Position numbers and translations under genes: made by a program. Below are positions 23,078 through 61,519 of a stretch of DNA of 64,000 nucleotides, piece by piece. Source of the DNA: Giardia intestinalis (taxonomy: Eukaryota); the NCBI GenBank assembly GCA_000002435.2, contig CM018791.1. The stretch is one strand, 5' to 3'. The stretch's first letter is position 1; every line of letters begins with the position of its first letter. The notes beneath the pieces are model-generated. The model made no database searches. It was not told the origin of the DNA and was given only the letters and a program-made list of their open reading frames with translations.

Positions 23078-25198
23078 CTAACACCGCTCCTCTGGATACT
23101 GAGAAAGAAGATTTACAACGTCGTAATGCTTTGCCGCCCTAGCTATGGAGAGGGCTGTACAGCTGCATGGGAAGAGGGAATCTGTAGATGTAGCTTTCAT
23201 CCCCTTTTCATAGTCTATGAGCATCTTCACCGCCTCTATTTTACCAGCTCGCGCGGCCTGCATAAGGGCTGTCTCACCAGTTCCAGTTTGCATCTTTGCC
23301 TCGCACTTAATGAGCTCGCTGATGATCTCCGTATTGCCTTGTTGTGCAGCGAACATCAGTGCTGTGTATCCTTTACCGCAGGAATAGCTTTCCGTCCCGA
23401 CTTCATAGGTGTAACAGTCGGTCGTCCGCATTCCTCCCTGGAGAGATACAAGGGCCTTCACTGTTTTGATGTCTCCAGACTTCACAGCCTGCATGAGAGC
23501 GGTGACACCCTTTTTGCTGGTGGGCTGAATAACCTCAACGATATTTCCAAATCCTGCCTTTCCAGCAATGATGAGTGCAGTGTCTCCGTTGGCATCTTTT
23601 CTACTCTTGATCCTGAGGTGCTTCTTGACGGTGGCTACGTCGCCCTTTGCAGCTGCACACATAAGGAAAGTCCACTTAAGAACATCCTTTTCGTGTTTGA
23701 TAAGACGCTTGACGATTGATAGATGACCATTTTCCAGTGCCATGTTGAGAGCTGACTGCCCTTTCTTGTCCGTTACACCCACTTCAAACCTACATAAAAT
23801 GGACACGGACTCTGCGTGTCCACCAAGTGCGGCATGCATGAGAGCAGTCATGCCTGTCTCGTCTTTGAGTCCAGACTCTTTGTTAGCAAGCATCCGGACG
23901 ATCTGCAAGTGCCCTCGCTGCGCAGCATGCATAAGGGCTGTCATTCCGTGTTCGTCACGCCTTCCTATGCTATTGCCCAGGCTCAAAAAGACCTTGATGT
24001 CGTTCACCTCGTTGTTACACGCAGCGGCTATCATTGTTGCATACTTAGGGTGGTTCTCATGCACTGAAGATTTCGCGAGTCGAGAAGGTGTTTCTGAAGA
24101 CACCCCCGTGTGCAACAGGTCAATGTTTGGACTGCTTGGAGACTCAGGCTTCGGTTTGGGTGTTGTATTCCGTGAGTTGTACGACGAGCAGGCACTCTTG
24201 AGGGACTGTATTTGTGCTTCTTGCTCCTCAATCTTGGACTGAGAGTTACTCAAAGTTACCCTGAGGGTTGCGCGCTCTGCCTCGAGCATTGCACACTTTC
24301 TTTCAAGTGTACTAATCCTTATTACAGAGTCATCGGTAGGCAGTGTCTTCCTAGCAACGCTCGTAGCATTACTTTTTAAATCTAACATATTCGCTAAGTC
24401 TATAGCAGAGAGGCGGTTGGTTGGATTCAGTACGAGAAGTCGTCGGAGTATATCTTTCAGAAAGCCATCAGCAATCTCACTGAGGTCCGGCCTCCAATCG
24501 CTAACGAAAACCTCCGTCGGCCTACAACCCCTTATGAAGTGTGGTCTACTCAAGCTGACCAGCTCATAGATGATGATTCCGAGGCTCCACATGTCAGAGG
24601 CCGTACTAGATTCTCCCCTCAAAAGCACTTCTGGAGCAGAGTAAGTTGAGCTACCAAAACCAGCAGGTGCACCCTCCAGAGCGCTCCTGCAGAGCCCACA
24701 GTCCGCCACAACAAAGAAGTTTGCGTTTTTGTTAGTTAATATGTTGTCTGTCTTGAGATTTTGATGAGTAAATACCGGTAGAGGTTCCCAGTTTTTACCC
24801 TGCTTATTTGGGTCATGAAGATAGGCAAGGGCAGAGGTGACGTGGTCGATGATAGTAAGAATAGTTGCCTCAGGTATGGGCCTTTTTTCTCGTTTGTGTT
24901 TCACAATCAAGGAAGCAAGGCTTTCGTGGTAGTGCCACATGGAAAGATAAACAAAATCATTAGCTTGTAGCGCCCAAAAATATTCGAGAACGTGGGGGTG
25001 ACTAACATGTTGAAATACGCAGAGTCTTTTAATAAGAACGTCTTTGGCATGCTCCTTCAATGTGTCCAGACGAATTTCCTTAATCGCCTGCTTCGGATCC
25101 TTTTTATATGTGTACACAGCGCCCAGAGAGCCCTCGCCAATGATCTCACCCAGGTTCTCTGACATCTTAGCGACACTATGGTCAACATTATTTGCCAT
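23078..25198 (-). CDS. NEK-like pseudokinase with coiled-coil linker and C-terminal ankyrin repeats (706 aa)
   Basis: Real ATG after TTTAATTAAAATAATTTTTAAAG. The kinase fold has IGEGSLGAV, AIKEI, SAPE and DCG, but the catalytic loop is HQNLKTDN (canonical HRDLKPEN). The catalytic Asp is replaced by Asn, so I predict it is inactive. A coiled-coil segment sits around residues 290-330. Then about 9 ankyrin repeats follow (TALMHAAQRGH, TALMHAALGGH, TALIIAGKAG...). Confidence 0.85.
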   Translation of the reverse strand: MANNVDHSVAKMSENLGEIIGEGSLGAVYTYKKDPKQAIKEIRLDTLKEHAKDVLIKRLCVFQHVSHPHVLEYFWALQANDFVYLSMWHYHESLASLIVKHKREKRPIPEATILTIIDHVTSALAYLHDPNKQGKNWEPLPVFTHQNLKTDNILTNKNANFFVVADCGLCRSALEGAPAGFGSSTYSAPEVLLRGESSTASDMWSLGIIIYELVSLSRPHFIRGCRPTEVFVSDWRPDLSEIADGFLKDILRRLLVLNPTNRLSAIDLANMLDLKSNATSVARKTLPTDDSVIRISTLERKCAMLEAERATLRVTLSNSQSKIEEQEAQIQSLKSACSSYNSRNTTPKPKPESPSSPNIDLLHTGVSSETPSRLAKSSVHENHPKYATMIAAACNNEVNDIKVFLSLGNSIGRRDEHGMTALMHAAQRGHLQIVRMLANKESGLKDETGMTALMHAALGGHAESVSILCRFEVGVTDKKGQSALNMALENGHLSIVKRLIKHEKDVLKWTFLMCAAAKGDVATVKKHLRIKSRKDANGDTALIIAGKAGFGNIVEVIQPTSKKGVTALMQAVKSGDIKTVKALVSLQGGMRTTDCYTYEVGTESYSCGKGYTALMFAAQQGNTEIISELIKCEAKMQTGTGETALMQAARAGKIEAVKMLIDYEKGMKATSTDSLFPCSCTALSIARAAKHYDVVNLLSQYPEERC

Positions 25199-25497
25199 GA
25201 CTCACTTTAAAAATTATTTTAATTAAAGAGATTGGAAGCGATTGTTTAGACCCAGAGAGTAGGCCAACGCATAAGTAGATCTCATCAGAGAGTCTCCAGT
25301 AGTCACCGAAGCCCGTCTGCTTGCAGTGATAGAAGCCGCGGGCTGGACTCCCAAGGGGTTTAAATGACGTGATCAAGTGCATGGACACGGCATTCACCTC
25401 GGAACACACAGTTCTGTACATTTTTTGCCCCTGATTCTCGGAGTACTTGAATTCAGAGAAGATTTGTGACTCTTAAAAAATTAGATTGTATAACAAA

Positions 25498-25896
25498 ATG
25501 TCAGCCAAAGTACCGCCAAATAGACCCGAGCTACTGGACACTCATGTGTGCTGGGAGGTGAAGACGGACTCTTTGGGCAAAGTCCTCAGGCTTCGCTCCC
25601 TGCCTGCTCCACTTTTGACAAGTAACTTCCTGGCTGTCCGTGGAGTGGTCGCTGCCCTAAGCTCTAATGGAAGGTACATAAAGCCAGAGGATCTTTCTAC
25701 GAATATCTTATCAACATCTCCGTTTTCTCGACCCTACTCCGGGTGCTTGTCTGCTAACACCAGAGCTTCGATTAACTCTCTTAACTCCCAAAGCTCCCCC
25801 AAAGACAAATCCAGGGCTCAGTCTACACCAAGTACAGCACCGGATATTGATGAATTAATGAACTGGTACACTTACCGTCGAGCTTGGCATAAGTAG
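25498..25896 (+). CDS. Small Ser-rich hypothetical ORF (132 aa); may be the N-terminal part of the following gene
   Basis: Real ATG with an AT-rich leader (ctcttaaaaaattagattgtataacaaa ATG). It ends at a TAG that is in frame with, and 39 stop-free nt upstream of, the 25936 gene. Confidence 0.35.
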   Translation: MSAKVPPNRPELLDTHVCWEVKTDSLGKVLRLRSLPAPLLTSNFLAVRGVVAALSSNGRYIKPEDLSTNILSTSPFSRPYSGCLSANTRASINSLNSQSSPKDKSRAQSTPSTAPDIDELMNWYTYRRAWHK

Positions 25897-25935
25897 CTGT
25901 CCACACCCTTATCAATTTTAAAAACCCTACTTCTC

Positions 25936-28900
25936 ATGAGGACTTCAGCTCTATGTCCTCTTCAGCCTATTGTGCGGCAATCAGATGCAGAACGGTCGCC
26001 CGTGGCACGAAAGTCACCTACCGTCCTTCCACCGCTTCGAGGTGTTGAGGCGATGAACTCCATGGGAGCGCGGCCAAGGCTTCCGTCCACCTCGCCTATG
26101 AGTCCTCGTGGCTCTAAATTATCTGAAAGGACACCTGATGATGACCGCAGCTCTGATTTGCAAAGGCAGGGATCGTCACTCTCCAAATTATCTGACTCCC
26201 TTTTTAAGGCCAGGAACGACTCTGTAAGGTGGCTCTTAAGCGACAACATGGAAATAGCAAATATAGACGACACATCCATGATTACCCCTAGTTGCCAAAC
26301 ACAGCCCCGTGAGGTGATTGTGAGCATACCGGGATACTTTTGTTATTGCAGCAGCTTTTCGCTTTTTATGTACAGGATCTTGTCCACTAAGAACGGCAGG
26401 GAGCCTGTTTTTCAATTGGTCCGGATCATCAACTTACCTGGGACCCACATCTTGTCATTGACTGCCGACAAGCAGACGATGCAGGTGGCCATCTCCAGCA
26501 TGGACCGCCGCATTCATCTATACTCCCTTGTTACAGGGGAGCCCACGCAAGATGTCATATTAGAGCTACAATCTCCCCCTGTCTCCATCAAGTTCCATCC
26601 CAGCATTCCGCATAGCTTGTTTCTCCTCCACTATTCAGCACAGAGCGAAGGAGAGCTTCGCCTACTTCACAGCATCACAGGAAAGTCCGTTGTCGTGAAG
26701 GCAGGCCTTGACAAAGCACTGGCACTGACATGCAGTCCATATAGCAAGGAACTAGCGGTCTCCTTTGAATCCGGAGAGATCTTTGTTATCGGACTATCTG
26801 CAGATGGAACCGAGGAGATCTATTCCCGTTCCTTGATTGCGGGTACCTTTACATCTAAGCTTCCAGACCTGGTTGCATGGAACTCCAAGCACAACGGTGC
26901 TAAAGCAAAGTCAGAAACTATCAAATCTAACATAAAGTACGTGCGCAAACTTTTAGACTATGTTTCCACGGTCTTGCTAAAGCCTGTCGAGCCCGTGTCA
27001 GTATCCTATGACCCCACCAATCATGAGACTCTGCTGGTAGTATTTGCGTTTGGGCTCCACTGCCTGTTCAACACTGCGACTGGCGACTGCTTAGTGATAT
27101 ACTTTGCTCGAGAAGGGAGACAGTTGGATACATCTAGGCTTAGGACAATCTTTAATATTGGCCTCATAGATACCACACTTAACAACGCTGACAGTAAGAA
27201 CATTTTCACTCCCGCTGGGACGCTTCCAAATGGGATTTCTTCGTGCATTTTTGTTCCTGGGCAGGCGGGAAGGTTCATCAGCACCGATTGTGACGCAGGA
27301 ATCGTGCGCATCTGGTCCGTGAACAATCCCCACGATCTGTCTGCGCGTCGTGTTGCTTCTACTGCACTATCTGGAGCATATATAGTAGAGTTGGATCCAT
27401 TTTTGCAAAATGAGCCCATAGCTTCTAATTGCCTTCCTACCGGCCTCACTGTCATCACCCCGACGACCACAACACTGTCTTCCTACGTAATAGCTCTAGT
27501 AGATTCATTTGGGGGCATATCGATTTATTCCAGTGACTTTCGTGCTCTTGTTCTAAGCATACCCTCGTCTCATTACGATAGGATTCTTTCATTGACCTAT
27601 GATCCCTTCAATCCTCTAGTATTTTGTACAGTAGGATGTGACGGGCTTGTCAAGCAATGGCGCACAGACTTTATAACAGAGCAGCACACAACTAGCGCCT
27701 CGGCGTTCAGTTGTAATAATAAGCAATACCAGCGGGTCTTAATACCGTACAACGGATCGGGACGCTTTAAGACGTGGAAAAGCAATGATCACGGGAAGAT
27801 TGCTGTGGCAAAGGCCCCTGCGTGTGTCTCGGTAATCTACGCGCCAGCAGAAGATCTACCGTACGTATTATGCTCATATATAAATGGTGACATACGCTTC
27901 TTTCAAAAGCACACTGGGCGACATACGTGCGACCTCATTTCTTCGTCTTCATTCTACGATTCAGGCCTCTTGATTCCCAAGAAGCACCACTTCTTCAGCA
28001 ATTATGACAAGGGGTTTCTCACCGGTCTATTCAGCTCCACCCTTAGGATCCCCCACGCGACAACCCTAGCCTGGTCTGATCTGAAGCCGCAGCTCATTGT
28101 CACCGGTTGGACGGATGGGTGTCTGCGTTTCTTCTTGTCTACCCGCGGTGTTCACGAATCAGTCGTCGATGCAGATGAATTGGTAATGTCTTTTCGACTT
28201 CTAGCCGTCTTTTCGGTTCCTTGGTTCTTCTCGGCACCAGATAACGACGGCTTCAGCATTCGTGCCACCAAATTCATTCCTAAGACATTAATCGTCGCTG
28301 CAGCCTTAGAGTCGGGCCATCTGCTATTCGTCAACGTGCGGCCGCTACTCTCAAAGACAATTCACTCTCTCTTTGACATGTGCTATGAATTCGACGCCGG
28401 CTTCTCGGCTGAATCCAACTACTCAGGCATAACTAACGATCAAGCAGCATTGGAGGCGGGCAAAAGTGACGCCCAAAACACAGACGAAAAGCTTTATAGA
28501 CAGCTTAAGCCTCTCTTTACAGAAACAGCTTCTGTTCTCGCTAATACTTCAAACATCTTTGTGTTTAACTTAACCATTTCATACAGATGCCACCTTGAGC
28601 ACAGGACAGTGATATTCCAGCACTCTTCGTACACCACGGCGCCCCTGCAACACCATGGTGGAACTCCAAGGAAGATCTGTTGCCTCGACATCCACCCACG
28701 TGCGGCGTCGTCGACTGACGCAGATGACTACAACCTGCTGGCTTTGGGGGATAACATGGGAGTAATGAGTATACTCCATATCGACTCTAATATTTGCACA
28801 GGAAACCTACCGGAGGGCCGCATTCTAATCAAGCACGTCTATACTTGTCTTGGAACCACCGGAAACCGTCCCACACATAGTCGGCGAGCGCCCTTAATTC

Positions 28901-31900
28901 GGGCGCTCAAGTTCACTCACGAAGTACCAACCTTTATCCTCCTTTCAGCATCGTCTGGCGATTTTCAGCTAATCGATTACACTCTGTCTCGCTGTGTAGC
29001 ACAAGCAAAGGCTATCAAGGTTCATAACTCTGAGGTGTTCTCGATGGATATACATCCCCTAAATCCGTACACCTGTATTGCTGCATGCCAAGATAATTCC
29101 ATCAGACAATTCAGCCTCTTGTCTTGCGGCCTTGGAATGTCTTTTTTGGGCTTTGTATCCTTGAAGTACCTCTGGTCTATATTCACTGATCGCTCGCCCA
29201 GTGCCTTTGCCACTTCTATCCTAGATGTGTGTCCCTTTAAAAACACTCTCTTCGACAACGAGGGTGTCCATGCAATTGGCTCTATCATTAGCAGTTGCTT
29301 GGGAGCCAGCGCAAGTACAAATGATGATCGTGAGACAAAGCTACCTTCCTACGTACTAGACCTCAATGCAGCATTCGCTTCTATCGGATCCTTTTTCCAC
29401 ACAAATCAATCTCTCTTTGCAGCTGTTGTTGCGCTAATACAGGGCAGGGTGACCCCGTACACGCCTTCTCCTGCATATGGATATTTGCATGTTGTCAGAC
29501 GCGTAGAGGCCATTGTCTCCGTGCTTCTCTCAGAAGTGATGCAGATCTGCCAGGTTCCCATGTTTGCTACTCTTGAGGAAGAAATTTCAAGGACATACCA
29601 ACACATATGTACTGATAGTACACTTTCCTCTGGTTCTGGAATAGGGCTGAATGAAATGATCTCACAAATCAAGCATGATCTAGGCGGGACGGTGACAATA
29701 TACACCTTGGGAACGGATGTATGCTTGAGGGACACGCCATTATCGGTGTCTAATAACATCACAAACAAGTTTAAATACGTTCTACAGCTACTTCTTCTGT
29801 CGCACAAGTATGCACTTCTCTCAGACGTTTTATGGCAGTTTGGGTTTCGTAACGAAGCTCTGCAGGTATCAATGTCAGTCAACGATAAGGAGCGCTGGTT
29901 TTCCCAACTTGTTCATGAAGCAGAAGAGGTCGCACGGCAAGGAGGCTTCCTTTTGCATGCAAGTATCTCCACCCCAACATCAACAGCCTCGGAGGCTCCC
30001 TTACGCGATGCTATCTCACAGACCAGAGCCCGGTACAACCTTGAAAGTGCAATCCCAGCTGATCTAGGCACGATTCTTCTCCAGAATGATCCTGCGGCTC
30101 TTGCACTCTATTTACTGTCTGTAGGAAAGTATGTCGAGGCCAAAATTGTGCTTTCTTTTGCCGTTTATAATCTGACTTCTACTCACCACCTCTATGAGTT
30201 CGATACCTTATATGGCGGGTCAAGCTCAGTTCGAGTGGCTGCACTACCTTGTCCTGCATCGTCTGAAAACTTCCCCCTGGGCCTAGACACTCTCAATACC
30301 TTGTACGCGATAACGTCCTTAAACATCGCTGCCACTTATTGTGACGCCCGCCAGCCTCTAGCAGCGGTTTGTGAACTGCTTGTGTGCAGAAGCTATGACC
30401 AAGCCACAAGGCTACTCCTTCTGAACAGGAGTGTCACTCTACTTATTTTATTATTAACCATGCTCATTAAAGCAGGAGAAGAAAATCCACGGCTACTTAC
30501 ACCACAAAAGCTATATCCTGCATCTTACCTACATGGCGAGAAGTCCTCGGTTGATGGTACAGACGACTGGGTTCCAGTCAATGCCATTCAGCGATACAAG
30601 GCCTTGCTGGTGACTATGACGATAGAATTATATTACTCATACGTTCATGGAAGCGTATTTCTTTCTGACGAGGCTCATACTATGGCAGAAGATGATGCGG
30701 GACCTAACTATCAACTTGAGCCGCTACTATCAGCATCCATAGGAAGCTTATACAAAGAGGTCGAAGATACTTCATTTGACAAGTCCGGTGTCCTTGCGCC
30801 CAAGTGCCTAACCGTAAGGGATGTTGTTATGCGCTATACGGGCAACTATGACGTGGAGTGCGCAGCACAACTAGATGAGAGCAGGCTAGCAGAGCATCTA
30901 TCAAGTATTCAGGGTCGCATTGAATTCAGCGACGAACCAGACGCGTTTTCCTCGCTGACGGGGTCTGTGTGCAAGGTCTCATTCCGCTCCCTTGTACACT
31001 TTATAGTGAAGAAACTCTTAGATGAGTTTCGCGGGCATTCAGAGGCGTATAGCATGTCGCCACAAGATGCCTATGGCACCTGCAGAGACGCTGGGGCAGA
31101 GGCGCCAGAGTCTGCTGAGGCTGTACCGATCAGTAATTCTGCGGCGGAGCTTGCTGCCAAGCCTGTTTTACCAGTCTGGAAATCAATATCCAAACTGCCC
31201 AAGGCGGCTTCGGAACAAGTCGTAGCGTCTGAGAAAGCAGAGGACCACGAAAAGATGGATGCTGGTAGTGACGGCATGCACCTAGAGCAACAGTCTGCAG
31301 TAGTAATGCAGTCAAACACGGCACCGAACGACGATGAGCTTGGCGACAACGACGTATTCCGGCTGGATATAGACCCCGGATATGGATGTCCCAGCGATGA
31401 TGATTATGTCCACTCTGTGCATGACGTATACCGACACCAGTTAGTCCCCGTGCTGCATCAAGCTAAGGACGGGGCCGCCCTATCTGATGCGTCCAAGAAG
31501 ACCAGCTGTGTAGCAGCCGAAACCTATGATCTTATATCTAAGCTTATCCTGAAACTACCGGTGACGGATGCCAATTGGGATACTCTATCACCCTATATCT
31601 CTTTCCTCGCCAAATGTCTTCCGTGTACAGGCGCTCAGAGGGTGCATCTACCATCAACGATGCCGCACATTTGCATCTGCTTTTTGGCAGCAGCCGGCTG
31701 CTCCTTCCTCTATGGACAACACAAGACAGCTAGAACAATTACTTTGGCTTTGAACAAAACTGTCACCAAGCACCCGGAAACGGAGGTGTTTTCAATAAAG
31801 GAGATCGTGAATGGGATACTAGACAAGAGGATATCGGTTCTGCCTGTCAGCATTAATGGAGACCAGCCCCTGTTGTACAAGGGAGAAACGTTCTTTGACA

Positions 31901-31977
31901 ACTCCGACGGACGTTGCTTCTCCCTCTTCCTATTCTTTGATAAGTATATGCACTGGAGCACCTCTGTTCTTATATAG
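25936..31977 (+). CDS. Very large hypothetical protein (2013 aa) with a disordered N-terminus, a beta-propeller-like region and a long alpha-helical region
   Basis: 6-kb uninterrupted ORF. After an S/P-rich leader, repeated beta-strand-rich segments suggest WD-like blades (e.g. HSLFLLHYSAQSEGELRLLHSITGKSVVVKAG, GIVRIWSVNNPHD, GWTDGCLRFF). The remainder is helical. No named family recognised. Confidence 0.8.
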   Translation: MRTSALCPLQPIVRQSDAERSPVARKSPTVLPPLRGVEAMNSMGARPRLPSTSPMSPRGSKLSERTPDDDRSSDLQRQGSSLSKLSDSLFKARNDSVRWLLSDNMEIANIDDTSMITPSCQTQPREVIVSIPGYFCYCSSFSLFMYRILSTKNGREPVFQLVRIINLPGTHILSLTADKQTMQVAISSMDRRIHLYSLVTGEPTQDVILELQSPPVSIKFHPSIPHSLFLLHYSAQSEGELRLLHSITGKSVVVKAGLDKALALTCSPYSKELAVSFESGEIFVIGLSADGTEEIYSRSLIAGTFTSKLPDLVAWNSKHNGAKAKSETIKSNIKYVRKLLDYVSTVLLKPVEPVSVSYDPTNHETLLVVFAFGLHCLFNTATGDCLVIYFAREGRQLDTSRLRTIFNIGLIDTTLNNADSKNIFTPAGTLPNGISSCIFVPGQAGRFISTDCDAGIVRIWSVNNPHDLSARRVASTALSGAYIVELDPFLQNEPIASNCLPTGLTVITPTTTTLSSYVIALVDSFGGISIYSSDFRALVLSIPSSHYDRILSLTYDPFNPLVFCTVGCDGLVKQWRTDFITEQHTTSASAFSCNNKQYQRVLIPYNGSGRFKTWKSNDHGKIAVAKAPACVSVIYAPAEDLPYVLCSYINGDIRFFQKHTGRHTCDLISSSSFYDSGLLIPKKHHFFSNYDKGFLTGLFSSTLRIPHATTLAWSDLKPQLIVTGWTDGCLRFFLSTRGVHESVVDADELVMSFRLLAVFSVPWFFSAPDNDGFSIRATKFIPKTLIVAAALESGHLLFVNVRPLLSKTIHSLFDMCYEFDAGFSAESNYSGITNDQAALEAGKSDAQNTDEKLYRQLKPLFTETASVLANTSNIFVFNLTISYRCHLEHRTVIFQHSSYTTAPLQHHGGTPRKICCLDIHPRAASSTDADDYNLLALGDNMGVMSILHIDSNICTGNLPEGRILIKHVYTCLGTTGNRPTHSRRAPLIRALKFTHEVPTFILLSASSGDFQLIDYTLSRCVAQAKAIKVHNSEVFSMDIHPLNPYTCIAACQDNSIRQFSLLSCGLGMSFLGFVSLKYLWSIFTDRSPSAFATSILDVCPFKNTLFDNEGVHAIGSIISSCLGASASTNDDRETKLPSYVLDLNAAFASIGSFFHTNQSLFAAVVALIQGRVTPYTPSPAYGYLHVVRRVEAIVSVLLSEVMQICQVPMFATLEEEISRTYQHICTDSTLSSGSGIGLNEMISQIKHDLGGTVTIYTLGTDVCLRDTPLSVSNNITNKFKYVLQLLLLSHKYALLSDVLWQFGFRNEALQVSMSVNDKERWFSQLVHEAEEVARQGGFLLHASISTPTSTASEAPLRDAISQTRARYNLESAIPADLGTILLQNDPAALALYLLSVGKYVEAKIVLSFAVYNLTSTHHLYEFDTLYGGSSSVRVAALPCPASSENFPLGLDTLNTLYAITSLNIAATYCDARQPLAAVCELLVCRSYDQATRLLLLNRSVTLLILLLTMLIKAGEENPRLLTPQKLYPASYLHGEKSSVDGTDDWVPVNAIQRYKALLVTMTIELYYSYVHGSVFLSDEAHTMAEDDAGPNYQLEPLLSASIGSLYKEVEDTSFDKSGVLAPKCLTVRDVVMRYTGNYDVECAAQLDESRLAEHLSSIQGRIEFSDEPDAFSSLTGSVCKVSFRSLVHFIVKKLLDEFRGHSEAYSMSPQDAYGTCRDAGAEAPESAEAVPISNSAAELAAKPVLPVWKSISKLPKAASEQVVASEKAEDHEKMDAGSDGMHLEQQSAVVMQSNTAPNDDELGDNDVFRLDIDPGYGCPSDDDYVHSVHDVYRHQLVPVLHQAKDGAALSDASKKTSCVAAETYDLISKLILKLPVTDANWDTLSPYISFLAKCLPCTGAQRVHLPSTMPHICICFLAAAGCSFLYGQHKTARTITLALNKTVTKHPETEVFSIKEIVNGILDKRISVLPVSINGDQPLLYKGETFFDNSDGRCFSLFLFFDKYMHWSTSVLI

Positions 31978-32064
31978 CGAAGACCGCTCTTGAAGCATCT
32001 ACAGCCAGTTTCTACCTACACAAAAACTCAAAATTCAAAATTTGAGGCAAAGTCACGTGTTGCC

Positions 32065-34371
32065 ATGGTTATCTCCTCCCCCTCCCAGGTGCTGATTAAG
32101 GCTGTGGATGACAAGAGGACGAGGTCGACCGCCTGCAAAGGAAACTGCCCCAAGTCAGGAAAGATTGGTACCGTCGAAGACCTGGAGAGGGTCATCGCAG
32201 ATCTAGATAGATGCATAGGATTTGCAGACATCCACCGCATTATTGCTAGCGACGTTGCTGATATACGGTATGTAGTCCCGTGGCTTCAGCGCGAAAACGT
32301 GTTAGGACAAGCAAGTCGACTTCTTTCTTCTTCAGAGTTGGCCGCCTCCTCTTTGTGCACTAGAAAACGGTGTGCCAAGATGTATCTTATATTATTCTCT
32401 GTCTGCGTGATGCTGCATGACAAACGATTACAGTCCAGTGTCCTTGAATCTCTAACGACAGTGAGTTTGTGCTTTGACTTACTTATCGGGGCTCATGTAA
32501 ATCTATACAGAATGAGGTCGCTGGAAGATAGCGGAAGATTCTCGCCCGAGATGTCAACTATCCTTGAGCGGCTAATGGGGCTGGATGAATTTGTGCATGA
32601 ATTTGATCGTCTTGGGCTCTTTGAAGACTATCAAGGAAGAGAGACCGAACATGCCCCTAGAAGGTATACTCCACCACCAGTCCCAGCAGAGTATTCGGTA
32701 GTGGTTTATGTTCATAGAAATTCCTCCTCTCCAAATGGGTGTAGTAATCCTGTCCGGGAGCCTACAATCAAGAAGGATATCCCGACTGAAAAAGAAACTA
32801 CACCGATGCCTTTGGCTGATCATCCTCCGTTCAACTTTCACTTGCTAAAGACGAATGCATTGAGCACATTCGACTTAGGTGTGTACTCCTTTCTATCAAC
32901 ACTGCGGTTTCATATATATCAAGATCTCCTTCAGCAGACTAACAAAGAGCGCCTCCTAGAGCAGGACATCCGGCGGTTTCAAAAGCTCTTTAGCCTTCTG
33001 GTCTACGTTAACAGGGATACAAGTAGTAAGGAGGTGTGCGAATATTTGGAGCAGCTCTTCGAGACTATCTCCTCACTCATCACATACACACGAATCTGCA
33101 GGTTTATCTTCGAGGTAGCGGAGTCACATCAGTTCTCAACATCGGAGATACCGATATCGTGCCTGACATCACGTAACGCCAAGACACGTATCTTAGCGGC
33201 AACCAAACCCTCAGTCAAGACCATCTCTCAATCCCTACGGAACATAGCAGCAGCAATAGCGGCTTGCACCCAGCAGATGCTTCAGTTTGTATCCTGGGTC
33301 GTACTAGAAAATCCGTGGCATGCTGCAGACTACCGCACAGAACATACTGCTTTGGACGCGGCTTCTAGAGTATCATGGTTGTTCCAACGGGCTTATGAAA
33401 AGATGCTCTCCCTCATAGAAGAGATCTTCATGTGTAGAGCTTGCCTATGCTTTACGATATTCCAGGTTGACGAGGAGTTGGTCAAGAATCTGACAGATGA
33501 CCTTCAGTATGACTCTACGATGATATCATACACGCTAGACGACGAAGGACAGCCCCCAAAAGAAGACGGTATTGAATACGAATTGCTCAGAAGCCTGTAC
33601 TGTACGGGAGAAGACGCGCTTCTGGAGTCGAAGGGAGTTCATGCTGCCGTAACAAGCAACATAGACTGCTCAGCTTTATATGCCAGGAAATCGGGAGAGA
33701 AGGGCCAGATTATCATCCAGCTCTATGGCCTACTCCCGCAACTCCTCTATGGCCTGCTGTACTTGATGAATCTGACCAACATGATGCTCCCGGGGTCGAA
33801 TCCTTCACGGGTTAACTCTGTTATCCAACTCATAGAGCCAACTGGGCTTATAATTACAACAATTTTCAGCGTGCTACAGCAAAACAACAAGTCCTTCTGC
33901 AGAGCGCAGTTGGGAGGGATATCCTTGTTCCTTAAGAGATTTTCGCAAGCTATCGAAGCCGTCCTGTCCGCTGTCCATACAGCATCACGATCTATCTATA
34001 AAAGAATCCGGACCTCCCAAAATAACCTCAATGACAATACCCGTATGGAGGCATACACTGCCATCATAAACACTGCGTTCAGGGTGCTACAGAATATGTT
34101 CGAGGCTGGCGTTGTCGTGCTTGACCAAAAGCTTCTTGTAACGGGGATCCGATATGTAACTTCATTTGTATCTCCCAAATCGTTCTGTGATGCTTGCCGC
34201 ATTTTAGTGCACCTTCTTCCATACAAGGAAATGCGAGAGTTTGCCGAGTGCTACACATTAGATGGAAAATCTGTTGGAGAATATTTAATCGAGCGGACCA
34301 GGCCTACAATAGCAGATTCTGCTTGTCTAAACTCTCTCGACGCCTTGCTTTTTCTCATCAACAATAGGTAA
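32065..34371 (+). CDS. Hypothetical protein (768 aa)
   Basis: The track ORF starts at a TTG. The first ATG (32065) follows AAAAACTCAAAATTCAAAATTTGAGG. The product is non-repetitive and largely helical. No recognisable domain. Confidence 0.7.
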   Translation: MVISSPSQVLIKAVDDKRTRSTACKGNCPKSGKIGTVEDLERVIADLDRCIGFADIHRIIASDVADIRYVVPWLQRENVLGQASRLLSSSELAASSLCTRKRCAKMYLILFSVCVMLHDKRLQSSVLESLTTVSLCFDLLIGAHVNLYRMRSLEDSGRFSPEMSTILERLMGLDEFVHEFDRLGLFEDYQGRETEHAPRRYTPPPVPAEYSVVVYVHRNSSSPNGCSNPVREPTIKKDIPTEKETTPMPLADHPPFNFHLLKTNALSTFDLGVYSFLSTLRFHIYQDLLQQTNKERLLEQDIRRFQKLFSLLVYVNRDTSSKEVCEYLEQLFETISSLITYTRICRFIFEVAESHQFSTSEIPISCLTSRNAKTRILAATKPSVKTISQSLRNIAAAIAACTQQMLQFVSWVVLENPWHAADYRTEHTALDAASRVSWLFQRAYEKMLSLIEEIFMCRACLCFTIFQVDEELVKNLTDDLQYDSTMISYTLDDEGQPPKEDGIEYELLRSLYCTGEDALLESKGVHAAVTSNIDCSALYARKSGEKGQIIIQLYGLLPQLLYGLLYLMNLTNMMLPGSNPSRVNSVIQLIEPTGLIITTIFSVLQQNNKSFCRAQLGGISLFLKRFSQAIEAVLSAVHTASRSIYKRIRTSQNNLNDNTRMEAYTAIINTAFRVLQNMFEAGVVVLDQKLLVTGIRYVTSFVSPKSFCDACRILVHLLPYKEMREFAECYTLDGKSVGEYLIERTRPTIADSACLNSLDALLFLINNR

Positions 34372-43914: not shown

Positions 43915-44472
43915 TTACTTGCAGCACCCGCCGCCCAGGCAGCAGAGCGCCGCGGCGTACATGGCTGTGAAGACTACCACATCGACGAGCCCGAGGACCA
44001 CGCCCGCCCACTTGTTGGAGGGGCCCTCAAGAAGGCCGCGGGGGCCCGCCGGGACGATGGCCGCGATGACGACGAAGGCGACGATGCAGCCCAGAATGAG
44101 CCCGAGGAACTTCAGCCCGCAGCTGTCCTTGTGGATGAAGAACGAGCCGATGACCACGGTGAAGGCCCAGCCGGCCGCGAGGGAGACCATCGACAGCCCG
44201 CTGTAGCCGCCCACGGTGTTGCTGAACGACTTATCGTTACCATTGTTCCCGTTCTTCGCCAGCACGGAGGTGATCAGGTACGTGAGGAAGTCCGCGAGCG
44301 AGGGGTACCCGACCCCGACCCCGATGCGGAACGCGTACTTGAGGAAGCAGTCGAGGCACCCGCAGCACCCGCAGCAGCAGCAGCTGCAGCAGCAGAGGAC
44401 GCACTTGAGGATCTGGACGACGATGCTGTAGATGATGCAGATCACGGCCACAATCATTATGAAGAGGAAGAG
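43915..44472. repeat. Left arm of a 558-bp inverted repeat (pairs with 46093..46650)
   Basis: The reverse complement matches the right arm with a single difference (GGG vs GGA Gly codon). The match ends exactly at the TAA stop. Confidence 0.9.
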
Positions 44473-44676
44473 CTTGCCCTCATTTTTATCAGTAAGACAC
44501 TGTATGGGATTTTTCCCATTACTGTTTCCCTTACTACCATTACTATCGAAACACGTTTTCAGCGTTTCTCCAATTGTTTTAGGATTTCTCCCCGGAAACC
44601 CTACAATCAGAGCATAAACAATCATCGGAACGCCCACACAGATGAGGGCAATGACGTCCTCATCGCAGCAGCACAT
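43915..44676 (-). CDS. Cysteine-string multi-pass membrane protein, paralogue A (253 aa)
   Basis: Real ATG after GGAATTTAAA. MCCCDED N-terminus, poly-Cys string CCCSCCCCGCCGC after TM2, C-terminal CCLGGGCCK, and 4-5 predicted TM helices. The 3' 558 nt are nearly identical to 46093..46650 on the opposite strand. Confidence 0.75.
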   Translation of the reverse strand: MCCCDEDVIALICVGVPMIVYALIVGFPGRNPKTIGETLKTCFDSNGSKGNSNGKNPIQCLTDKNEGKLFLFIMIVAVICIIYSIVVQILKCVLCCCSCCCCGCCGCLDCFLKYAFRIGVGVGYPSLADFLTYLITSVLAKNGNNGNDKSFSNTVGGYSGLSMVSLAAGWAFTVVIGSFFIHKDSCGLKFLGLILGCIVAFVVIAAIVPAGPRGLLEGPSNKWAGVVLGLVDVVVFTAMYAAALCCLGGGCCK

Positions 44677-45126
44677 TTTAAATTCCTTCGAACAAACCGA
44701 GTAAATAGATTTTGACGTATTGACGGTGTAAGGAACTTATGCAGATGCTTGTCTAATGGCACGTGTCCACAACTAGATTCAATATAGTCAGCTATATTTT
44801 CAAGTTTAGCGGCAACCCTTAAAAAACTATGCATGTAAACAAATTACACCAACAATCATAAATACTCGGATGGCTTCAGTGGTCCCGGGGGGCAAGAGGT
44901 AAGGCATTGATACAGACTGTTTCGTTGCTAGTGTACGATGCGACGAGCGTGATATAACAAACGTACACCTGGATCTAAGAGGCCTGAATCTCTCCGTCTA
45001 ATCGCACTCTTTGAACATAGATTTTCCTCCAGACACTTAAGTTTTCGCTTTGAAACGGACAGGTCTGCATTCAGCTGCTGATGTCGAAGTGTGGTGTGTT
45101 GCAGGGCACTCTCCTGCCGTCAAGCC

Positions 45127-45543
45127 TCACCCTCCACTTTTCCAGTTAGCTGTCCATCCCAAGTCTGATTTCGGAAAGTATACCTTGTTGCAGTACCTCA
45201 GAGCTGTTTGCAGTAAACCTTTTGCTGAATTGGGGTCACGGCTTTCGAACTGTGGAACCAGTCTTTCATCTGCGAGGGTCTGCTGAGGGCTGCGCCCCGG
45301 CTGTTCTGCGCACGCTCCCCTGCGGAGGCGGTGGCCGGGGGCGCACCGGTGGCAGTACTCCGGGACGGCGCAGACCGCGCAGTGCTCGACGGCGCAGGGC
45401 CCGGGGGTGCACGCCCGCCCGCCGTCTGCAGGGACCAGCTCGCCCTGGCAGCGCAGGCAGGCGGCGCCCGCGCACCGCTCGCAGCCGGGGACCGTCACCC
45501 CGCAGGGCAGGGCCGCGAGGAGGCGGAGGAGGCGTCCGGGCAT
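45127..45543 (-). CDS. Small secreted Cys-rich (CXXC) protein or VSP/HCMP-like N-terminal fragment (138 aa from MPGRLL)
   Basis: Signal-peptide-like MPGRLLRLLAALPCGVTVPG followed by four CXXC motifs (CERC, CLRC, CAVC, CHRC) within 60 aa. The 5' two-thirds are extremely GC-rich. It may be a pseudogene remnant. Confidence 0.3.
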   Translation of the reverse strand: MPGRLLRLLAALPCGVTVPGCERCAGAACLRCQGELVPADGGRACTPGPCAVEHCAVCAVPEYCHRCAPGHRLRRGACAEQPGRSPQQTLADERLVPQFESRDPNSAKGLLQTALRYCNKVYFPKSDLGWTANWKSGG

Positions 45544-45830
45544 CGGCGTGTTTTCGGCCAAAAATCTGGCGATGTCTACGGCGCCCGCGACCTGGGACAC
45601 GCACTGGGCGCGCCACTGGCGCCTGGCCTGGGACTACGTCCTCGGGGCCGCCGTGGCAGGGCTCCTCCTGGTGTGCGGGGTGCGCTCCCCGGGCCAGGCA
45701 GGGGACCCGGACCCCCGGCGCAGCCCCCGCAGCCCCCGGCGCCGCAGCTCCTTCGAGGGCCGGGCTCCCCCGCGCCGGCGGGAGACGAGCGACCCCGACG
45801 TCGACTGCTCCGACTAGCCCGGGGCACGCG
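45290..45830. other. GC-rich island (visually >70% GC) in the spacer between the inverted paralogues
   Basis: Dense GC-rich codons give spurious open frames on both strands and in several frames (ORFs 45222..45845, 45266..45868, 45331..45840, 45407..45817, 45576..45827). Flanking DNA is about 45-50% GC. Confidence 0.7.
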
Positions 45831-45900
45831 AATCCCATAAAGTGAACGTCAACGCTTTTCCGGCACAATCACCGGGTAGTTTATTGATGGAGAAAAATAA

Positions 45901-46650
45901 ATGTGCTGCTGCGACGAGGACATCATCGCCCTCATCTGCGTGGGCATCCCGATGATCGCGTACGCGGTGGTAGTCGGCTTTCCGGGGAGAGACCCCAGCA
46001 AGGTTGGAGCGGCATTGAAAGAGTGTCTCAGTAACAAAAATGGTAAGAATCTTCTGGCCTGCATCAGTGAGAAGGGGGATAACTACGGCGGCCTCTTCCT
46101 CTTCATAATGATTGTGGCCGTGATCTGCATCATCTACAGCATCGTCGTCCAGATCCTCAAGTGCGTCCTCTGCTGCTGCAGCTGCTGCTGCTGCGGGTGC
46201 TGCGGGTGCCTCGACTGCTTCCTCAAGTACGCGTTCCGCATCGGGGTCGGAGTCGGGTACCCCTCGCTCGCGGACTTCCTCACGTACCTGATCACCTCCG
46301 TGCTGGCGAAGAACGGGAACAATGGTAACGATAAGTCGTTCAGCAACACCGTGGGCGGCTACAGCGGGCTGTCGATGGTCTCCCTCGCGGCCGGCTGGGC
46401 CTTCACCGTGGTCATCGGCTCGTTCTTCATCCACAAGGACAGCTGCGGGCTGAAGTTCCTCGGGCTCATTCTGGGCTGCATCGTCGCCTTCGTCGTCATC
46501 GCGGCCATCGTCCCGGCGGGCCCCCGCGGCCTTCTTGAGGGCCCCTCCAACAAGTGGGCGGGCGTGGTCCTCGGGCTCGTCGATGTGGTAGTCTTCACAG
46601 CCATGTACGCCGCGGCGCTCTGCTGCCTGGGCGGCGGGTGCTGCAAGTAA
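45901..46650 (+). CDS. Cysteine-string multi-pass membrane protein, paralogue B (249 aa)
   Basis: Real ATG after GAGAAAAATAA. The domain layout matches paralogue A. The N-terminal ~65 aa diverged (MCCCDEDIIALICVGIPMIAYAVVVGFPGRDPSKVGAALKECL...), and the remainder is identical. Confidence 0.75.
   Translation: MCCCDEDIIALICVGIPMIAYAVVVGFPGRDPSKVGAALKECLSNKNGKNLLACISEKGDNYGGLFLFIMIVAVICIIYSIVVQILKCVLCCCSCCCCGCCGCLDCFLKYAFRIGVGVGYPSLADFLTYLITSVLAKNGNNGNDKSFSNTVGGYSGLSMVSLAAGWAFTVVIGSFFIHKDSCGLKFLGLILGCIVAFVVIAAIVPAGPRGLLEGPSNKWAGVVLGLVDVVVFTAMYAAALCCLGGGCCK
46093..46650. repeat. Right arm of the 558-bp inverted repeat
   Basis: See left arm. The arms are separated by about 1.6 kb (44473-46092), which holds both divergent 5' gene ends and the GC island. 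Confidence 0.9.
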
Positions 46651-46662
46651 ACGGCGCCCGGC

Positions 46663-48183
46663 CTACTGCTCGGTCTCCTCGTAGATCGTGATCTCGGAGC
46701 AGTCTGCGCACCGGAGCCCGCTGTCCTCCGAGACGGGGACCTGGAAGATCACCCTGCAGAAGCGCATGAACCGGTTTGCGTACGCGTCGCTCGGGACCGC
46801 GGAGATCCCGTCCTTGTCTGCGCACAGCCCCTTCGCCCTGCGCTCGACGTGCTTGATGCTCCTGAACTCGGTGAGGAAGTCGACGACGCCCATGTGGAGG
46901 ACCCGGTAGTAGAGGGCCGACCCCCGCAGCGTGGGCCCCAGGGCGCAGGCGGGGGAGAACGCGTAGAGCCCGCCCTCCTCGCTGTGGAAGATGTCGCTGC
47001 TCTGGATGGCCGCCTCGAACGTGAAGCGGCGCCGGAAGACCTCCCGGAGGTACTCGTCGGGGGGCAGCGCGGCGAGGAACGCGGACGTCCCCCGGCTCCC
47101 CCCGGCCGCGATGCTGTGGCCCACCGGGGGCAGCATGTCCGAGACGTCCCGCGTGCTGAGGATGGTTCTCGGGGAGCTGGCAGCAAGAAGGCGGTCGTAG
47201 AAGCGCTGCACAGGGGTCTTGGCATCTTCGCTGTGGACTTTATCGGCTTCGATAGTGTTGTTGGTTGGCGTGCCCGGGGCCGCTGCGGGATCATCGTCAC
47301 GCTCTCTGTCCTGAATACACGGGATATCGTCCGTGAGACCCAAGAGTAGGCTGTAGTCTATCAGGTTGTGCTGCTTGAGCCAATCTGAGTCTGCCTTGAG
47401 CTGATGGATCAGGAGCCGCCGCCGGAGGGTTGTGAGGTAAATGTAGTTCTCCATATTTGTGTCCTTCAAGGTCTTTTTGGCCCGATCATCAGGAGCATGC
47501 AGCTTTGTGTGCCGGCCAACCCAGGAGCCCTTCAGGTCATACCGCTCAACTATCTTTCGAGGAGTGGCGAAAAGGTTTGGTATGATAATAAAATGCTTAC
47601 CATGCTTGGAGGTCCTATGTGGCGCTGAAGAAGTGCCGGGCTTACCGGTAGTGATAGTGAACATTGCGTAGATCCGGATGAGAAGTGAGCTAGGGTTATC
47701 TAGAAGGTGCCGCCCGTATGATGCGCAGATCTTTAGCATGAGAACAAGCTCCTTGGGCTTTAGTTGCTTAATAAGATACTTACCAGACTCGCTGAAAATA
47801 AAGAATGTGGGGCTTTTACCGGGCGACTTCATTAGCCCAGGGTGGCTGCATGTGACAAACTCTTTTAGCAGCGACTGAGGATTGAGGGAATCTTTTGTCA
47901 TTAGCGTTCTAAACATAGACGCATGATAGAAGATGGCAGTCAAATCGCTTCCAAGTGGCGCACTGGTGTTGGGATCCACCTCACTGCCGGGTAAAGCCAA
48001 TACTGTCATAAGGCCTTCTGTCTCGGAGCTGTATGGGTTCTCACCAGTCTGAGTTTGAGTTTCAATAACTTTTCCAATAGCCTGTTGCACGCGCCGTACA
48101 TGTGGATAGAGCGAACTCTGAACAGTCAGTTGCTCGCCAGAATATGGCCGTTGGTCATACTCCAACTTCCCCAACAGAACCAT
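46663..48183 (-). CDS. Phosphatidylinositol phosphate kinase (PIPK/PIP5K-domain) protein (506 aa)
   Basis: Real ATG after GATGATTAAAAA. PIPK core motifs are present: GKSPTFFIFSESGKYLIKQLKPKE (G-loop/substrate region), IDYSLLLGL (catalytic-loop region) and LHMGVVDFLTEFRSIKHVERRAKGL (activation-loop/C-terminal signature). The 3' ~640 nt are markedly GC-rich. Confidence 0.85.
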   Translation of the reverse strand: MVLLGKLEYDQRPYSGEQLTVQSSLYPHVRRVQQAIGKVIETQTQTGENPYSSETEGLMTVLALPGSEVDPNTSAPLGSDLTAIFYHASMFRTLMTKDSLNPQSLLKEFVTCSHPGLMKSPGKSPTFFIFSESGKYLIKQLKPKELVLMLKICASYGRHLLDNPSSLLIRIYAMFTITTGKPGTSSAPHRTSKHGKHFIIIPNLFATPRKIVERYDLKGSWVGRHTKLHAPDDRAKKTLKDTNMENYIYLTTLRRRLLIHQLKADSDWLKQHNLIDYSLLLGLTDDIPCIQDRERDDDPAAAPGTPTNNTIEADKVHSEDAKTPVQRFYDRLLAASSPRTILSTRDVSDMLPPVGHSIAAGGSRGTSAFLAALPPDEYLREVFRRRFTFEAAIQSSDIFHSEEGGLYAFSPACALGPTLRGSALYYRVLHMGVVDFLTEFRSIKHVERRAKGLCADKDGISAVPSDAYANRFMRFCRVIFQVPVSEDSGLRCADCSEITIYEETEQ

Positions 48184-52261: not shown

Positions 52262-54076
52262 CTAGTGGAGGCTGGCCTTCCACCGGTTCCTCGACGCGCT
52301 CTCACCGCGCTGCTGGTTTGGGCCGAGGACTACATTCTGTGCCTTCGTGACTTGCTTCCGGGAAGATGGACGGACGATGTGCTGCTCCGGTATGGCTGAG
52401 TCGTTAATGATATTGAACCGCCGCCTTGGAGCCGCCGCAGCCGATTGTGCAGAGTACGCACGTGCCTTGAAGCTGTGAGGAGCGGTCGAGGTGGCAAAGA
52501 AGCTCGGGGATGGATCGTTGGGGTGCATGGACGGAAGAGCAACTCCTGGGGCTGTTAGTGAATTCGGGTTTAGCTCCCCTTCTGGTGTATTTTGAATGCA
52601 CGAAAACGAAGCTGCATACCTACTGAAGGACGCCTCGAGGTTATCTAGTTCGCGATATTGAAGCTGCATCACCTCTAGTGAAGCGGGCCCGGCGGCTGTC
52701 CTTGCTCTGAGCTGGTTAGGTCTGATGGAAGCCCCAGGGAGAAGGCTCTCAGGTGCTATGTCCGATGTGTCTGAGGAGTGATCTGGCAAAGCGTGTTCTT
52801 GGTCATAGCTGTGCACAGAGCTTTCTGCCAGTGTGCTGGATGTGTTGCTTCTGGTGATGTAAACATGTCCCGAACCCTCTGGGCACGAGGCTGGTAGTAT
52901 AGCAGGGTCCTGCTGGCCCCGCGGTGGCTTACTGCTTGTGGTGTGCTTCTGAATTGATGCCGATGTTTTGCCTAGTGAGTTACTCGCCAGAGCACTCATC
53001 TGGAGCCCCGAGCTCCCTTCCTTTGTAGAAACAACGCTGGGACCCACTGGTGTTACGGTAGAGATAGCTGGTTTGGTGAAGGTTGGCGGCGGACTGTGGG
53101 AAAGCTCTACAATCATGGGCTCCACAGTTGGTATAGACTGGATTGGCCCTGCATGAGTCTCCTTTTTCTGACCTGCAACGGACCGTGCACCTGGCGCACA
53201 GAAAGATATAATCGGAGGCCTGCGGTACTCCCGCTGCATCTCAGTAGTGGATGATGGATTGCTCGAAGAAACAGATGTCCTAGCGCACGAATCATGCAGC
53301 CGCTGAAGCTCACCAGCGGTTTCAGCATCAGTGTGGGTAACGACCTGGGTATTCTTTGTACATGCAACTTCCCGAGCGATGGAGCAGGGGTCTCTGTATA
53401 TGGTGAGATCTATTGAGTCATCACATACTTGTGAACTTTGAGAATCTAGCGTTCCACCATCAGTGAGGTGAAAGGTAGCAGATCCTGGGAAAAGGGAACC
53501 GCCGTGAGACCGTGCCCTCTCATATGATGTCCTACGCTCAAGACGACTAGTTCCCCGACCATCAGCAGATCTTTGTGCCAAAAAGGAACTGATAAGGGAG
53601 CAGCCGCTCTTTTGTTGTGCCGCAGACTGCTTCTCTGCCCCTAGTGTGTACCTGCTCAGCACCCGAACAGACACCGGCCGCGGTACACGCGTACGTACTT
53701 CTGGCTTGACATACTCGTCTCCTATGTTGCACAGGGTGGCAGCCTGTGGTAGATGTATGGATCTGTCTCTATCCCATGATGACTTGGGGCCGTCTGCAAT
53801 GCTCAAAAGCACTCTCTGCGGACGGATGTTGGCGCCATCTGGCACATTTGGCAGTAGGTATTCCATACCGCGCACAAATGCACGGCCAGCGTTAGTCTTG
53901 GACGGCAGAATGGAGATGTGGTCCCGCATTTCATTACACAGAATCGGCTGTCCTTTCTTTGGAGCATCAATCTTATCTGATCCTATAGGGCTGTTAACGT
54001 ATGAAATTTTCCTCAATTTTCCAGTCCTATTGCTGGTAGTGCGTAGAGCTTGTGTTGCGATCACTCCTGGATCCAT
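52262..54076 (-). CDS. Ser/Pro/Thr-rich hypothetical protein (604 aa from first ATG)
   Basis: The track ORF starts at a TTG. The first ATG (54076) follows TAGAAGATTTAAAAAT. The product is low-complexity and likely disordered. It converges on RPL21 with 31 nt between stops. Confidence 0.6.
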   Translation of the reverse strand: MDPGVIATQALRTTSNRTGKLRKISYVNSPIGSDKIDAPKKGQPILCNEMRDHISILPSKTNAGRAFVRGMEYLLPNVPDGANIRPQRVLLSIADGPKSSWDRDRSIHLPQAATLCNIGDEYVKPEVRTRVPRPVSVRVLSRYTLGAEKQSAAQQKSGCSLISSFLAQRSADGRGTSRLERRTSYERARSHGGSLFPGSATFHLTDGGTLDSQSSQVCDDSIDLTIYRDPCSIAREVACTKNTQVVTHTDAETAGELQRLHDSCARTSVSSSNPSSTTEMQREYRRPPIISFCAPGARSVAGQKKETHAGPIQSIPTVEPMIVELSHSPPPTFTKPAISTVTPVGPSVVSTKEGSSGLQMSALASNSLGKTSASIQKHTTSSKPPRGQQDPAILPASCPEGSGHVYITRSNTSSTLAESSVHSYDQEHALPDHSSDTSDIAPESLLPGASIRPNQLRARTAAGPASLEVMQLQYRELDNLEASFSRYAASFSCIQNTPEGELNPNSLTAPGVALPSMHPNDPSPSFFATSTAPHSFKARAYSAQSAAAAPRRRFNIINDSAIPEQHIVRPSSRKQVTKAQNVVLGPNQQRGESASRNRWKASLH

Positions 54077-61200: not shown

Positions 61201-61519
61201 CGCGAATCTTGAGGTTGACGATCTTTGACTGGTTGAGATGCTTGAAGATACCGCCGTACCCGTCACTAAAGGTAAAGGAGGACACAGTGATCGTCTTTCC
61301 ACGACCATTGAGGGTCCCTGTGAATAGGGAAACGGGTTCCCAGTTCTCCGAAAGGGTGACGTCCGAACCTAGCTCCACAGCACAACAGGGACAGTCTGCA
61401 AGAGCTTTCAGCCCAGCCTCATCAGTAATAGTCAGTTGACGCGGAACGCATCCCAACGCACTGGCCAGCAGGAGGAGTATCACTCCTTTAAACATTTTTG
61501 TGGACAATGGGGTCAACAT
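58256..61519 (-). CDS. Type I membrane/secreted surface protein with GG[IVF][AV]G-repeat (beta-helix-like) ectodomain, EGF-like Cys modules and one C-terminal TM
   Basis: Signal peptide (MLTPLSTKMFKGVILLLLASALGC). About 12 spaced GGxxG motifs (VGGIAG, AGGFVG, GGFAG, GGFIG, TIGGLVS, GGIGGIVG). C-terminal EGF-like Cys spacing (CSPGYSGAFCSTFQCTINGDCGSGGRCDVSTGSCECGLGLYGSSC...). TM helix ITIALTVVSVVLVAGIVTLIVFLL plus a short tail. The track ORF starts at GTG. The first ATG (61519) is the more likely start, but a second ATG at 61495 is also plausible. Confidence 0.8.
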   Translation of the reverse strand: MLTPLSTKMFKGVILLLLASALGCVPRQLTITDEAGLKALADCPCCAVELGSDVTLSENWEPVSLFTGTLNGRGKTITVSSFTFSDGYGGIFKHLNQSKIVNLKIRANTEVKGSFIYFGLLAATATDSYFSQVVVEGTLSITSSLSVPPAETISIGGVLGYLTGVEPASDILVKLQMTVTTAGSDTVRLNVGMGVGLVEHAALSAVHATGSLKVTGPARFTVGGIVGNSTGTVQRSESYPAELTVTRTGSAATTGFSYELDLVVGGIAGICGAIQHSRAVIPNMKVTGISTVGGAAGYLTRGTSMSSSSWTNATIRVTAAGDITAGGFVGWSLSSIRNCTSVGNVHLHTQDQPLPPTVSVGPETAGGGFAGRVSADVDECYAYPESVVCISDNCVSYCGGFIGIFHRQNSSIVVKNSAAVTKLVNATGGLYGIAAGFLSRTENEHVHSGAIYLCAAHGDVIYSSESGEDKATSWKSSISAGFVGYAEYLQISNTYAVTNKVISSGYAFSTAAGYGGSLRYRSTIQDSFAVVNTALEVKASFLRTLYPGYDETQAPDDTLTGGASFVAEVYRNSFIDRCYGRAESINITVDAANSIEGNRLALLGGLSMLTMTGKLSDSFADVKAMKMKINSTKVQPHVGTIGGLVSSLGAIDDCWARVGETTMEYSDTTATSPELDGGIGGIVGSLHLGSTVSNSIAYQTKPISISGFVPKNLGSVIGYLHDGVVRRVIVNVSFIGLTSQGQPKAFGGLNVSNINAAMAGQVYYLNTANTDNCGEPTANADFNAKFGSQLHCVGADAMQNSATYDGINFADDSIFGHDTTGYPYLRNLPTLSNPSKEGFVDNLRKPSALGATKERRWNYDKVWANSDDTFNHCPHLKSFKSLGGGQVYVTPGQFNCSPGYSGAFCSTFQCTINGDCGSGGRCDVSTGSCECGLGLYGSSCSESFCGSNCNRNGICTQLDNYVFTCACDQTSYKHAEACRVGCTNLMNGICIGPGDAICDIPYVSTGTGMCVSPDALFVPVRQLYSTHKVMSGITIALTVVSVVLVAGIVTLIVFLLKAKRMGPTSNYMKMQPQDSIPLEEHAARSVL

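Follow-up and report, generated by a model that had tools for sequence, protein, structure and literature searches.

The 64,000-nucleotide stretch of Giardia intestinalis DNA analysed here (the window; contig CM018791.1 of assembly GCA_000002435.2) carries a small open reading frame (ORF) and, directly downstream on the same strand, a very large one in the same reading frame. The small ORF runs from an ATG at 25498 to a TAG (132 codons), 39 nucleotides (nt) follow that read as 13 codons without a stop, and the large ORF extends from an ATG at 25936 to 31977 (2013 codons), with its own TAG at 31975–31977 (Table 1). Checked against the sequence, this is exactly the layout described in an earlier reading made from the sequence alone (the sequence-only reading), which listed three explanations without choosing among them: one gene interrupted by a nonsense mutation or sequencing error, programmed read-through of the TAG, or two separate genes. 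Exact-sequence look-up matched each ORF to a separately annotated protein of G. intestinalis WB clone C6, and the reference annotation holds two genes here, GL50803_29692 (hypothetical, 132 amino acids (aa)) and GL50803_11912 (WD40 repeat protein, 2013 aa; this older identifier was taken from the supplementary tables of PMC7461913). The two-gene layout is already annotated and ordinary. Our comparisons point the same way: the two ORFs are almost certainly independent, adjacent, co-directional genes, the TAG is the small gene's normal stop, and the sharing of a frame is coincidental. This conclusion, the third of the listed explanations, is carried by the conservation of the stop, the variable frame, purifying selection on both ORFs, their separate annotation and the lack of a fused homologue.

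Table 1. Features of the locus and other in-frame neighbours in the window
Feature	Position	Strand	Remark
Small gene GL50803_29692 (new identifier GL50803_0029692, XP_037901843.1)	25498–25896	+	Exact match to WB protein
Small-gene stop TAG	25894–25896	+	Stop at the homologous position in every lineage
Intergenic spacer, 39 nt, non-coding	25897–25935	+	Length varies between lineages, with non-triplet indels
Large gene GL50803_11912 (XP_037901844.1), 2013-aa WD40 repeat protein	25936–31977	+	Exact match to WB protein
AT-rich initiator-like element TTAAAAAATTA	25473–25483	+	15–25 nt upstream of the small-gene ATG; putative promoter
AT-rich initiator-like element AATTTTAAAAA	25914–25924	+	12–22 nt upstream of the large-gene ATG; putative promoter
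Single-stop in-frame pair	25936–31977 / 32065–34371	+	87-nt spacer
Single-stop in-frame pair	54182–55849 / 52262–54076	-	105-nt spacer
Single-stop in-frame pair	61547–63853 / 58256–61519	-	27-nt spacer

Orthologous loci were compared in six Giardia lineages, assemblage A and five others including G. muris. Assemblage A was represented by four assemblies: WB, DH (L009), and the Logan assemblies SRR3177751 and SRR18693200 (L004/L005, about 98% identical). The remaining loci came from P15 of assemblage E (L001), a metagenome contig (L002, 72% identical), the Logan runs ERR3333379 (L003, 67% identical), ERR3333380 and ERR3333378 (L007 and L008, for which the identity given is that of the small protein P0009, 69%), and G. 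muris (L006, 28% identical). In all of them a small ORF of 129–144 codons lies directly upstream of the WD40 gene, and in every lineage a stop follows the conserved C-terminal motif of the small protein at the homologous position, with all three stop codons in use (Table 2). A sense codon at the orthologous position, which the sequence-only reading had suggested looking for in other isolates, was not found among the four assemblage A assemblies and the five other lineages; all have a stop, and the orthologues are split in every lineage compared, the very outcome that the same reading had named as telling against a single gene. Judged from these alignments, the function of stopping here is kept while the identity of the codon is free to vary, and the TAG of the window is a genuine, conserved terminator of the small gene.

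Table 2. The junction between the small and the large ORF in six Giardia lineages
Lineage	Stop of small ORF	Spacer	Frame offset of large ORF
Assemblage A	TAG	39 nt	0
Assemblage E (P15)	TAG	41 nt	2
L002	TAA	52 nt	1
L003	TAA	39 nt	0
L007/L008	TGA	41 nt	2
G. muris	TGA, then TAG and TAA	7 nt	1

The frame of the downstream ORF, by comparison, varies. Each of the offsets 0, 1 and 2 occurs in two lineages, leaving the ORFs out of frame in four of six, and because each offset occurs twice the frame of the downstream gene is unconstrained. The alignment of the junction DNA contains spacer indels of 2 and 13 nt, neither a multiple of three, and the only invariant elements among the five sequences of the G. 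intestinalis complex are a TAAAAA core and the downstream ATG. Around the stop, the context AAG-TRR-C is conserved in the window, L002, L003 and L007 (AAGTAGC, AAGTAAC and AAGTGAC); the C at position +4 is found in all G. intestinalis lineages, and the context beyond it is not conserved.

Both ORFs bear the marks of genuine genes. Orthologues of the small protein occur in all six lineages (129–144 aa) and share 34 invariant residues, G. muris included. These cluster in residues 12–55 (CWEV.TD..G...LR.LP.PL.T..F...RGV..AL) and in the C-terminal 18 residues (PDIDELMNWYTYRRAWHK), where the motif PDIxxLxxWY plus about 8 residues reaches the stop in all six lineages. Between the clusters, residues 56–114 are 42% serine, proline and threonine and less conserved than either end. 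The sequence-only reading had taken the small product and the N-terminus of the large one as S/P-rich disordered sequence that would form a continuous low-complexity leader; this holds for residues 56–114 of the small protein, and the N-terminus of the large protein is S/P-rich as well, but residues 12–55 and the last 18 residues are conserved and not of low complexity. For the small ORF, ratios of non-synonymous to synonymous substitution rates (dN/dS, Nei-Gojobori) lie at 0.04–0.22, dS reaching about 1.6, and indicate that it is a genuine gene under purifying selection. Its transcript has been detected by RNA sequencing (RNA-seq) and rises about 2.7–3.0-fold upon host-cell contact (PMC7461913). 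When 1.84 billion representative proteins were searched with a profile of the small protein, two clusters only were recovered, those of G. intestinalis (132 aa) and G. muris (144 aa), and no fused form, which, so far as these representatives go, places the protein within the genus Giardia alone. Pfam gave no match for it or for its G. muris orthologue, a profile search of the Protein Data Bank (PDB) found none either (best E 0.93), and an AlphaFold2 (AF2) model built on a 5-sequence alignment was unusable, with a predicted local distance difference test score (pLDDT) of 36.9.

The large protein has orthologues of 1951–2033 aa in the G. intestinalis lineages and of 1961 aa in G. muris, all beginning at a homologous methionine. 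The N-terminal peptide M-x-T-x-x-L-x-P-L-Q-P-I-V-R and its ATG are conserved across the loci of the G. intestinalis complex, and in G. muris the N-terminal similarity is looser (MQKSLTLSPLQ). Automatic gene calls in many assemblies choose Met-40 (26053) as the start of the WD40 protein (1974 aa; clusters P0001 and P0017; 128 contigs); since the first 39 codons and the ATG are conserved, 25936 is favoured as the true start. The Pfam WD40 family (PF00400) scores 28.3 bits on the WB protein, where the cut-off is 27, and 50.4 bits on its G. muris orthologue, and a PDB profile search returned one generic WD40 repeat only, at about residues 541–579. By these matches the large ORF encodes a WD40 repeat protein that is assignable to no specific subfamily. 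A structure model of residues 101–1300 was unusable as a fold (pLDDT 36.4); at this low confidence it suggests that the N-terminal two-thirds are beta-rich and the rest helical. In outline, the S/P-rich N-terminus of the large protein would be followed by a beta-rich region with the WD40 repeats and by a C-terminal half that is helical. Searches with the single sequence and with a five-sequence profile found Giardia orthologues only, with no outgroup beyond the genus and none carrying the small protein. The dN/dS of the first 600 codons (0.07–0.21, Nei-Gojobori) indicates purifying selection on the large ORF as well. A small-RNA survey of 2009 placed the microRNA candidate Gim6 antisense to GL50803_11912 (PMC2817412).

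The Giardia genome is compact, with adjacent genes, short AT-rich initiator promoters and very short untranslated regions (UTRs) (PMC3792122; PMC1885649). Transcription start site sequencing (TSS-seq) in WB has located initiation inside an AT-rich consensus whose frequent variants include ATTTTAAAAAT, ATTTTAAAAAA and CTTTTAAAAAT; 5' UTRs are mostly shorter than 20 nt, and leaders down to 1 nt are still translated (PMC3792122). Each of our two genes is preceded by such a putative element. The spacer element ATTTTAAAAAC matches ATTTTAAAAAT and ATTTTAAAAAA at 10 of 11 positions. The element upstream of the small gene resembles initiation-site variants such as CTTTTAAAAAT (PMC3792122); its AAAAAATTAGATTG context is conserved at the P15 and L002 loci, and its diverged counterpart in L003 is still AT-rich (TTTTTTAAAGATCAGATTG). 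Of the 30 ORFs in the window, 14 have an A/T run of at least 7 nt that contains AAAA in the 60 nt before them, compared with 3.4% of random 60-nt windows. In G. muris, three consecutive in-frame stops close the small gene, whose spacer to the ATG of the WD40 gene is only 7 nt long (AGA TGA TAG TAA A ATG; L006 2988–3003); the spacer plus stops, TGATAGTAAAATG, is AT-rich and resembles 'AAAATAAAATG'-type variants, and by this resemblance the triple stop may double as the initiator of the downstream WD40 gene.

We infer the position of transcription initiation and the independence of the two mRNAs. The large gene would most likely be transcribed from its own AT-rich initiator AATTTTAAAAA (25914–25924) within the 39-nt spacer and translated from the ATG at 25936, its mRNA having the very short leader that Giardia typically shows; the second gene having its own ATG behind this element is what the two-gene explanation had proposed. 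The common frame and the stop-free spacer would then be a coincidence, made likely by the very short intergenic regions. Published RNA-seq data lend weak support to separate mRNAs. The small and the large gene have log counts per million (logCPM) of 3.14 and 8.72, respectively, and log fold changes (logFC) of 0.95/1.36/1.50 and 0.72/0.85/0.84 (PMC7461913). The difference in counts is about 48-fold and that in length 15-fold, so read density differs about 3-fold, and both this and the difference in induction favour two transcripts.

The shared frame itself does not exceed the chance expectation. Shuffling the 39-nt spacer leaves it free of in-frame stops in 65% of cases; multiplied by the one-third probability of a common frame, this yields about 0.22 per co-directional pair. 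Six of the ten co-directional neighbour pairs in the window share a frame, and four of the ten are parted by a single stop with a stop-free spacer (this pair and the three others in Table 1), against about 2 expected, a difference that is not significant (p about 0.15). Of the 30 ORFs in the window, 15 end in TAG, which no other stop codon equals. The pair therefore looks like an ordinary Giardia gene pair: it has a spacer of tens of bases, an AT-rich element 12–22 nt before the ATG, a conserved start and a conserved stop for each ORF, and separate annotation. Nothing essential differs, and all that is unusual is that the adjacency is kept as far as G. muris, where the spacer is 7 nt.

The other explanations fit these observations far less well. 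That a nonsense mutation or sequencing error broke one ancestral gene of 2,159 codons in this isolate, leaving a pseudogene or a polymorphism, has in its favour the in-frame, stop-free layout in the window and nothing else, and we give it practically no chance. The homologous stop in four independent assemblage A assemblies and five other lineages, G. muris among them, refutes it; additionally, purifying selection still acts on both parts, four of the six lineages have the two orthologues in different frames, and no fused homologue occurs among the 1.84 billion representatives. Programmed or regulated read-through of the TAG at 25894–25896 would produce a fusion of 2,158 residues in which a 13-residue linker connects the small protein to the WD40 protein, joined as ...RRAWHK-X-LSTPLSILKTLLLMRTSAL..., and could operate in assemblage A and the L003 lineage only. 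There the ORFs are in frame without a second stop, and all G. intestinalis lineages have a C directly after the stop, but the offsets are 2, 1, 2 and 1 in P15, L002, L007/L008 and G. muris, with further in-frame stops following, the spacer has non-triplet indels and lacks coding-type conservation, an equal layout arises by chance in four of ten neighbour pairs, and our literature search turned up no paper on read-through of a Giardia gene. Since four of the six lineages have no common frame and the spacer indels break the triplet phase, conserved read-through is ruled out, and the second of the listed explanations is refuted as a conserved mechanism; read-through of any programmed kind is, in our estimate, very improbable. 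Known read-through occurs in viral contexts of the gag-pol or tobacco mosaic virus type (UAG-CARYYA) and in the cellular context UGA-CUAG, whereas the context here, TAG-CTG-TCC, is neither. The assemblage A isolate resembles such genes in having a single stop and then an in-frame open extension; it differs from them in that the frame is not conserved, the extension shows neither coding conservation nor a known stimulatory context, and the downstream ORF starts at a conserved ATG of its own, preceded by an initiator-like element. TAA and TAG encode glutamine in the hexamitid diplomonads (Spironucleus, Hexamita, Trepomonas; see also PMC5304391), and a TAG inside an apparently continuous frame in a diplomonad recalls that situation. 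Giardia, however, uses the standard code and keeps TAG as a stop, and to our knowledge TGA is a stop in all diplomonads. Reassignment of the code was rejected, as TAG ends half of the window ORFs and the homologous stop is TGA in L007/L008 and G. muris. An intron across the stop was rejected likewise, with neither a GTATGT 5' site nor a CTRACACACAG branch/3' site in 25498–26100.

Functional coupling of the two ORFs in a bicistronic unit is also unlikely. One transcript would start from a promoter upstream of 25498, and the small ORF would be a conserved upstream cistron or encode a partner subunit of the WD40 protein. The order of small and then large ORF has been kept in both G. intestinalis and G. 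muris, where only 7–52 nt separate the two, no recognisable polyadenylation signal follows the small ORF, and both genes rise together upon host-cell contact. However, a conserved initiator-like element precedes the large gene itself, a leader of 438 nt would be atypical when most Giardia 5' UTRs are shorter than 20 nt (PMC3792122), the two genes differ about 3-fold in read density, and the synteny takes in the next gene as well (768/778 aa), so that it may merely reflect a conserved block. Certain observations do weigh against two fully independent genes. An AGTRAA-type polyadenylation signal was not found in 25498–26100; the AAG-TRR-C context of the stop resembles the Giardia polyadenylation motif AGTRAAY without matching it, and there is no exact AGTRAA within 200 nt downstream. 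The transcript of the small gene may run on into the large one. Some co-transcription would fit with the up-regulation of both genes in one RNA-seq experiment. Trace read-through of the TAG in assemblage A, at a low level and not programmed, is improbable but compatible with the comparative data.

It is also improbable, in our assessment, that the small and the WD40 proteins form a functionally linked pair, either as partner subunits or as products of an old gene fission. If they did, the tight tandem linkage (7–52 nt) retained in both G. muris and G. intestinalis could be a sign of co-expression, perhaps through a transcript that the two share in part, and occasional read-through in assemblage A could even give a fused form.

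With two separate genes as the preferred reading, the analysis matters little beyond confirming the reference annotation of GL50803_29692 and GL50803_11912. In-frame neighbours parted by one stop are a routine by-product of the very short intergenic regions of Giardia, and this pattern alone should therefore not be used to flag pseudogenes or recoding in such genomes. Of minor value are two further points: by the comparisons above, the 132-aa orphan is a genuine gene, restricted to the genus and subject to purifying selection, and its place beside the WD40 gene is conserved even in G. muris.

The surroundings of the pair are those of a compact genome. Long ORFs are densely packed on both strands of the window (G+C about 48%), scans found no transfer RNA genes and no Rfam RNA families in it, and a bacterial promoter and terminator scan gave nothing useful, its model being irrelevant to a eukaryote. 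Near the pair lie a NEK-type kinase with ankyrin repeats (23078–25198, minus strand) and the RNA polymerase II subunit Rpb2. A three-gene block of the small orphan, the WD40 gene and a hypothetical protein of 768/778 aa is syntenic between G. muris (L006 2559–11234) and the window (25498–34371), and the flanks of the block differ: upstream stands the NEK-ankyrin kinase in G. intestinalis and a 227-aa ORF in G. muris, and downstream Rpb2 and a DHHC protein, respectively. Farther along, local G+C rises to about 0.59 in 44001–48000, compared with about 0.48 elsewhere, and around 45100–46650 many overlapping ORFs occupy both strands beside a PIP5K-domain gene (46663–48183, minus strand).

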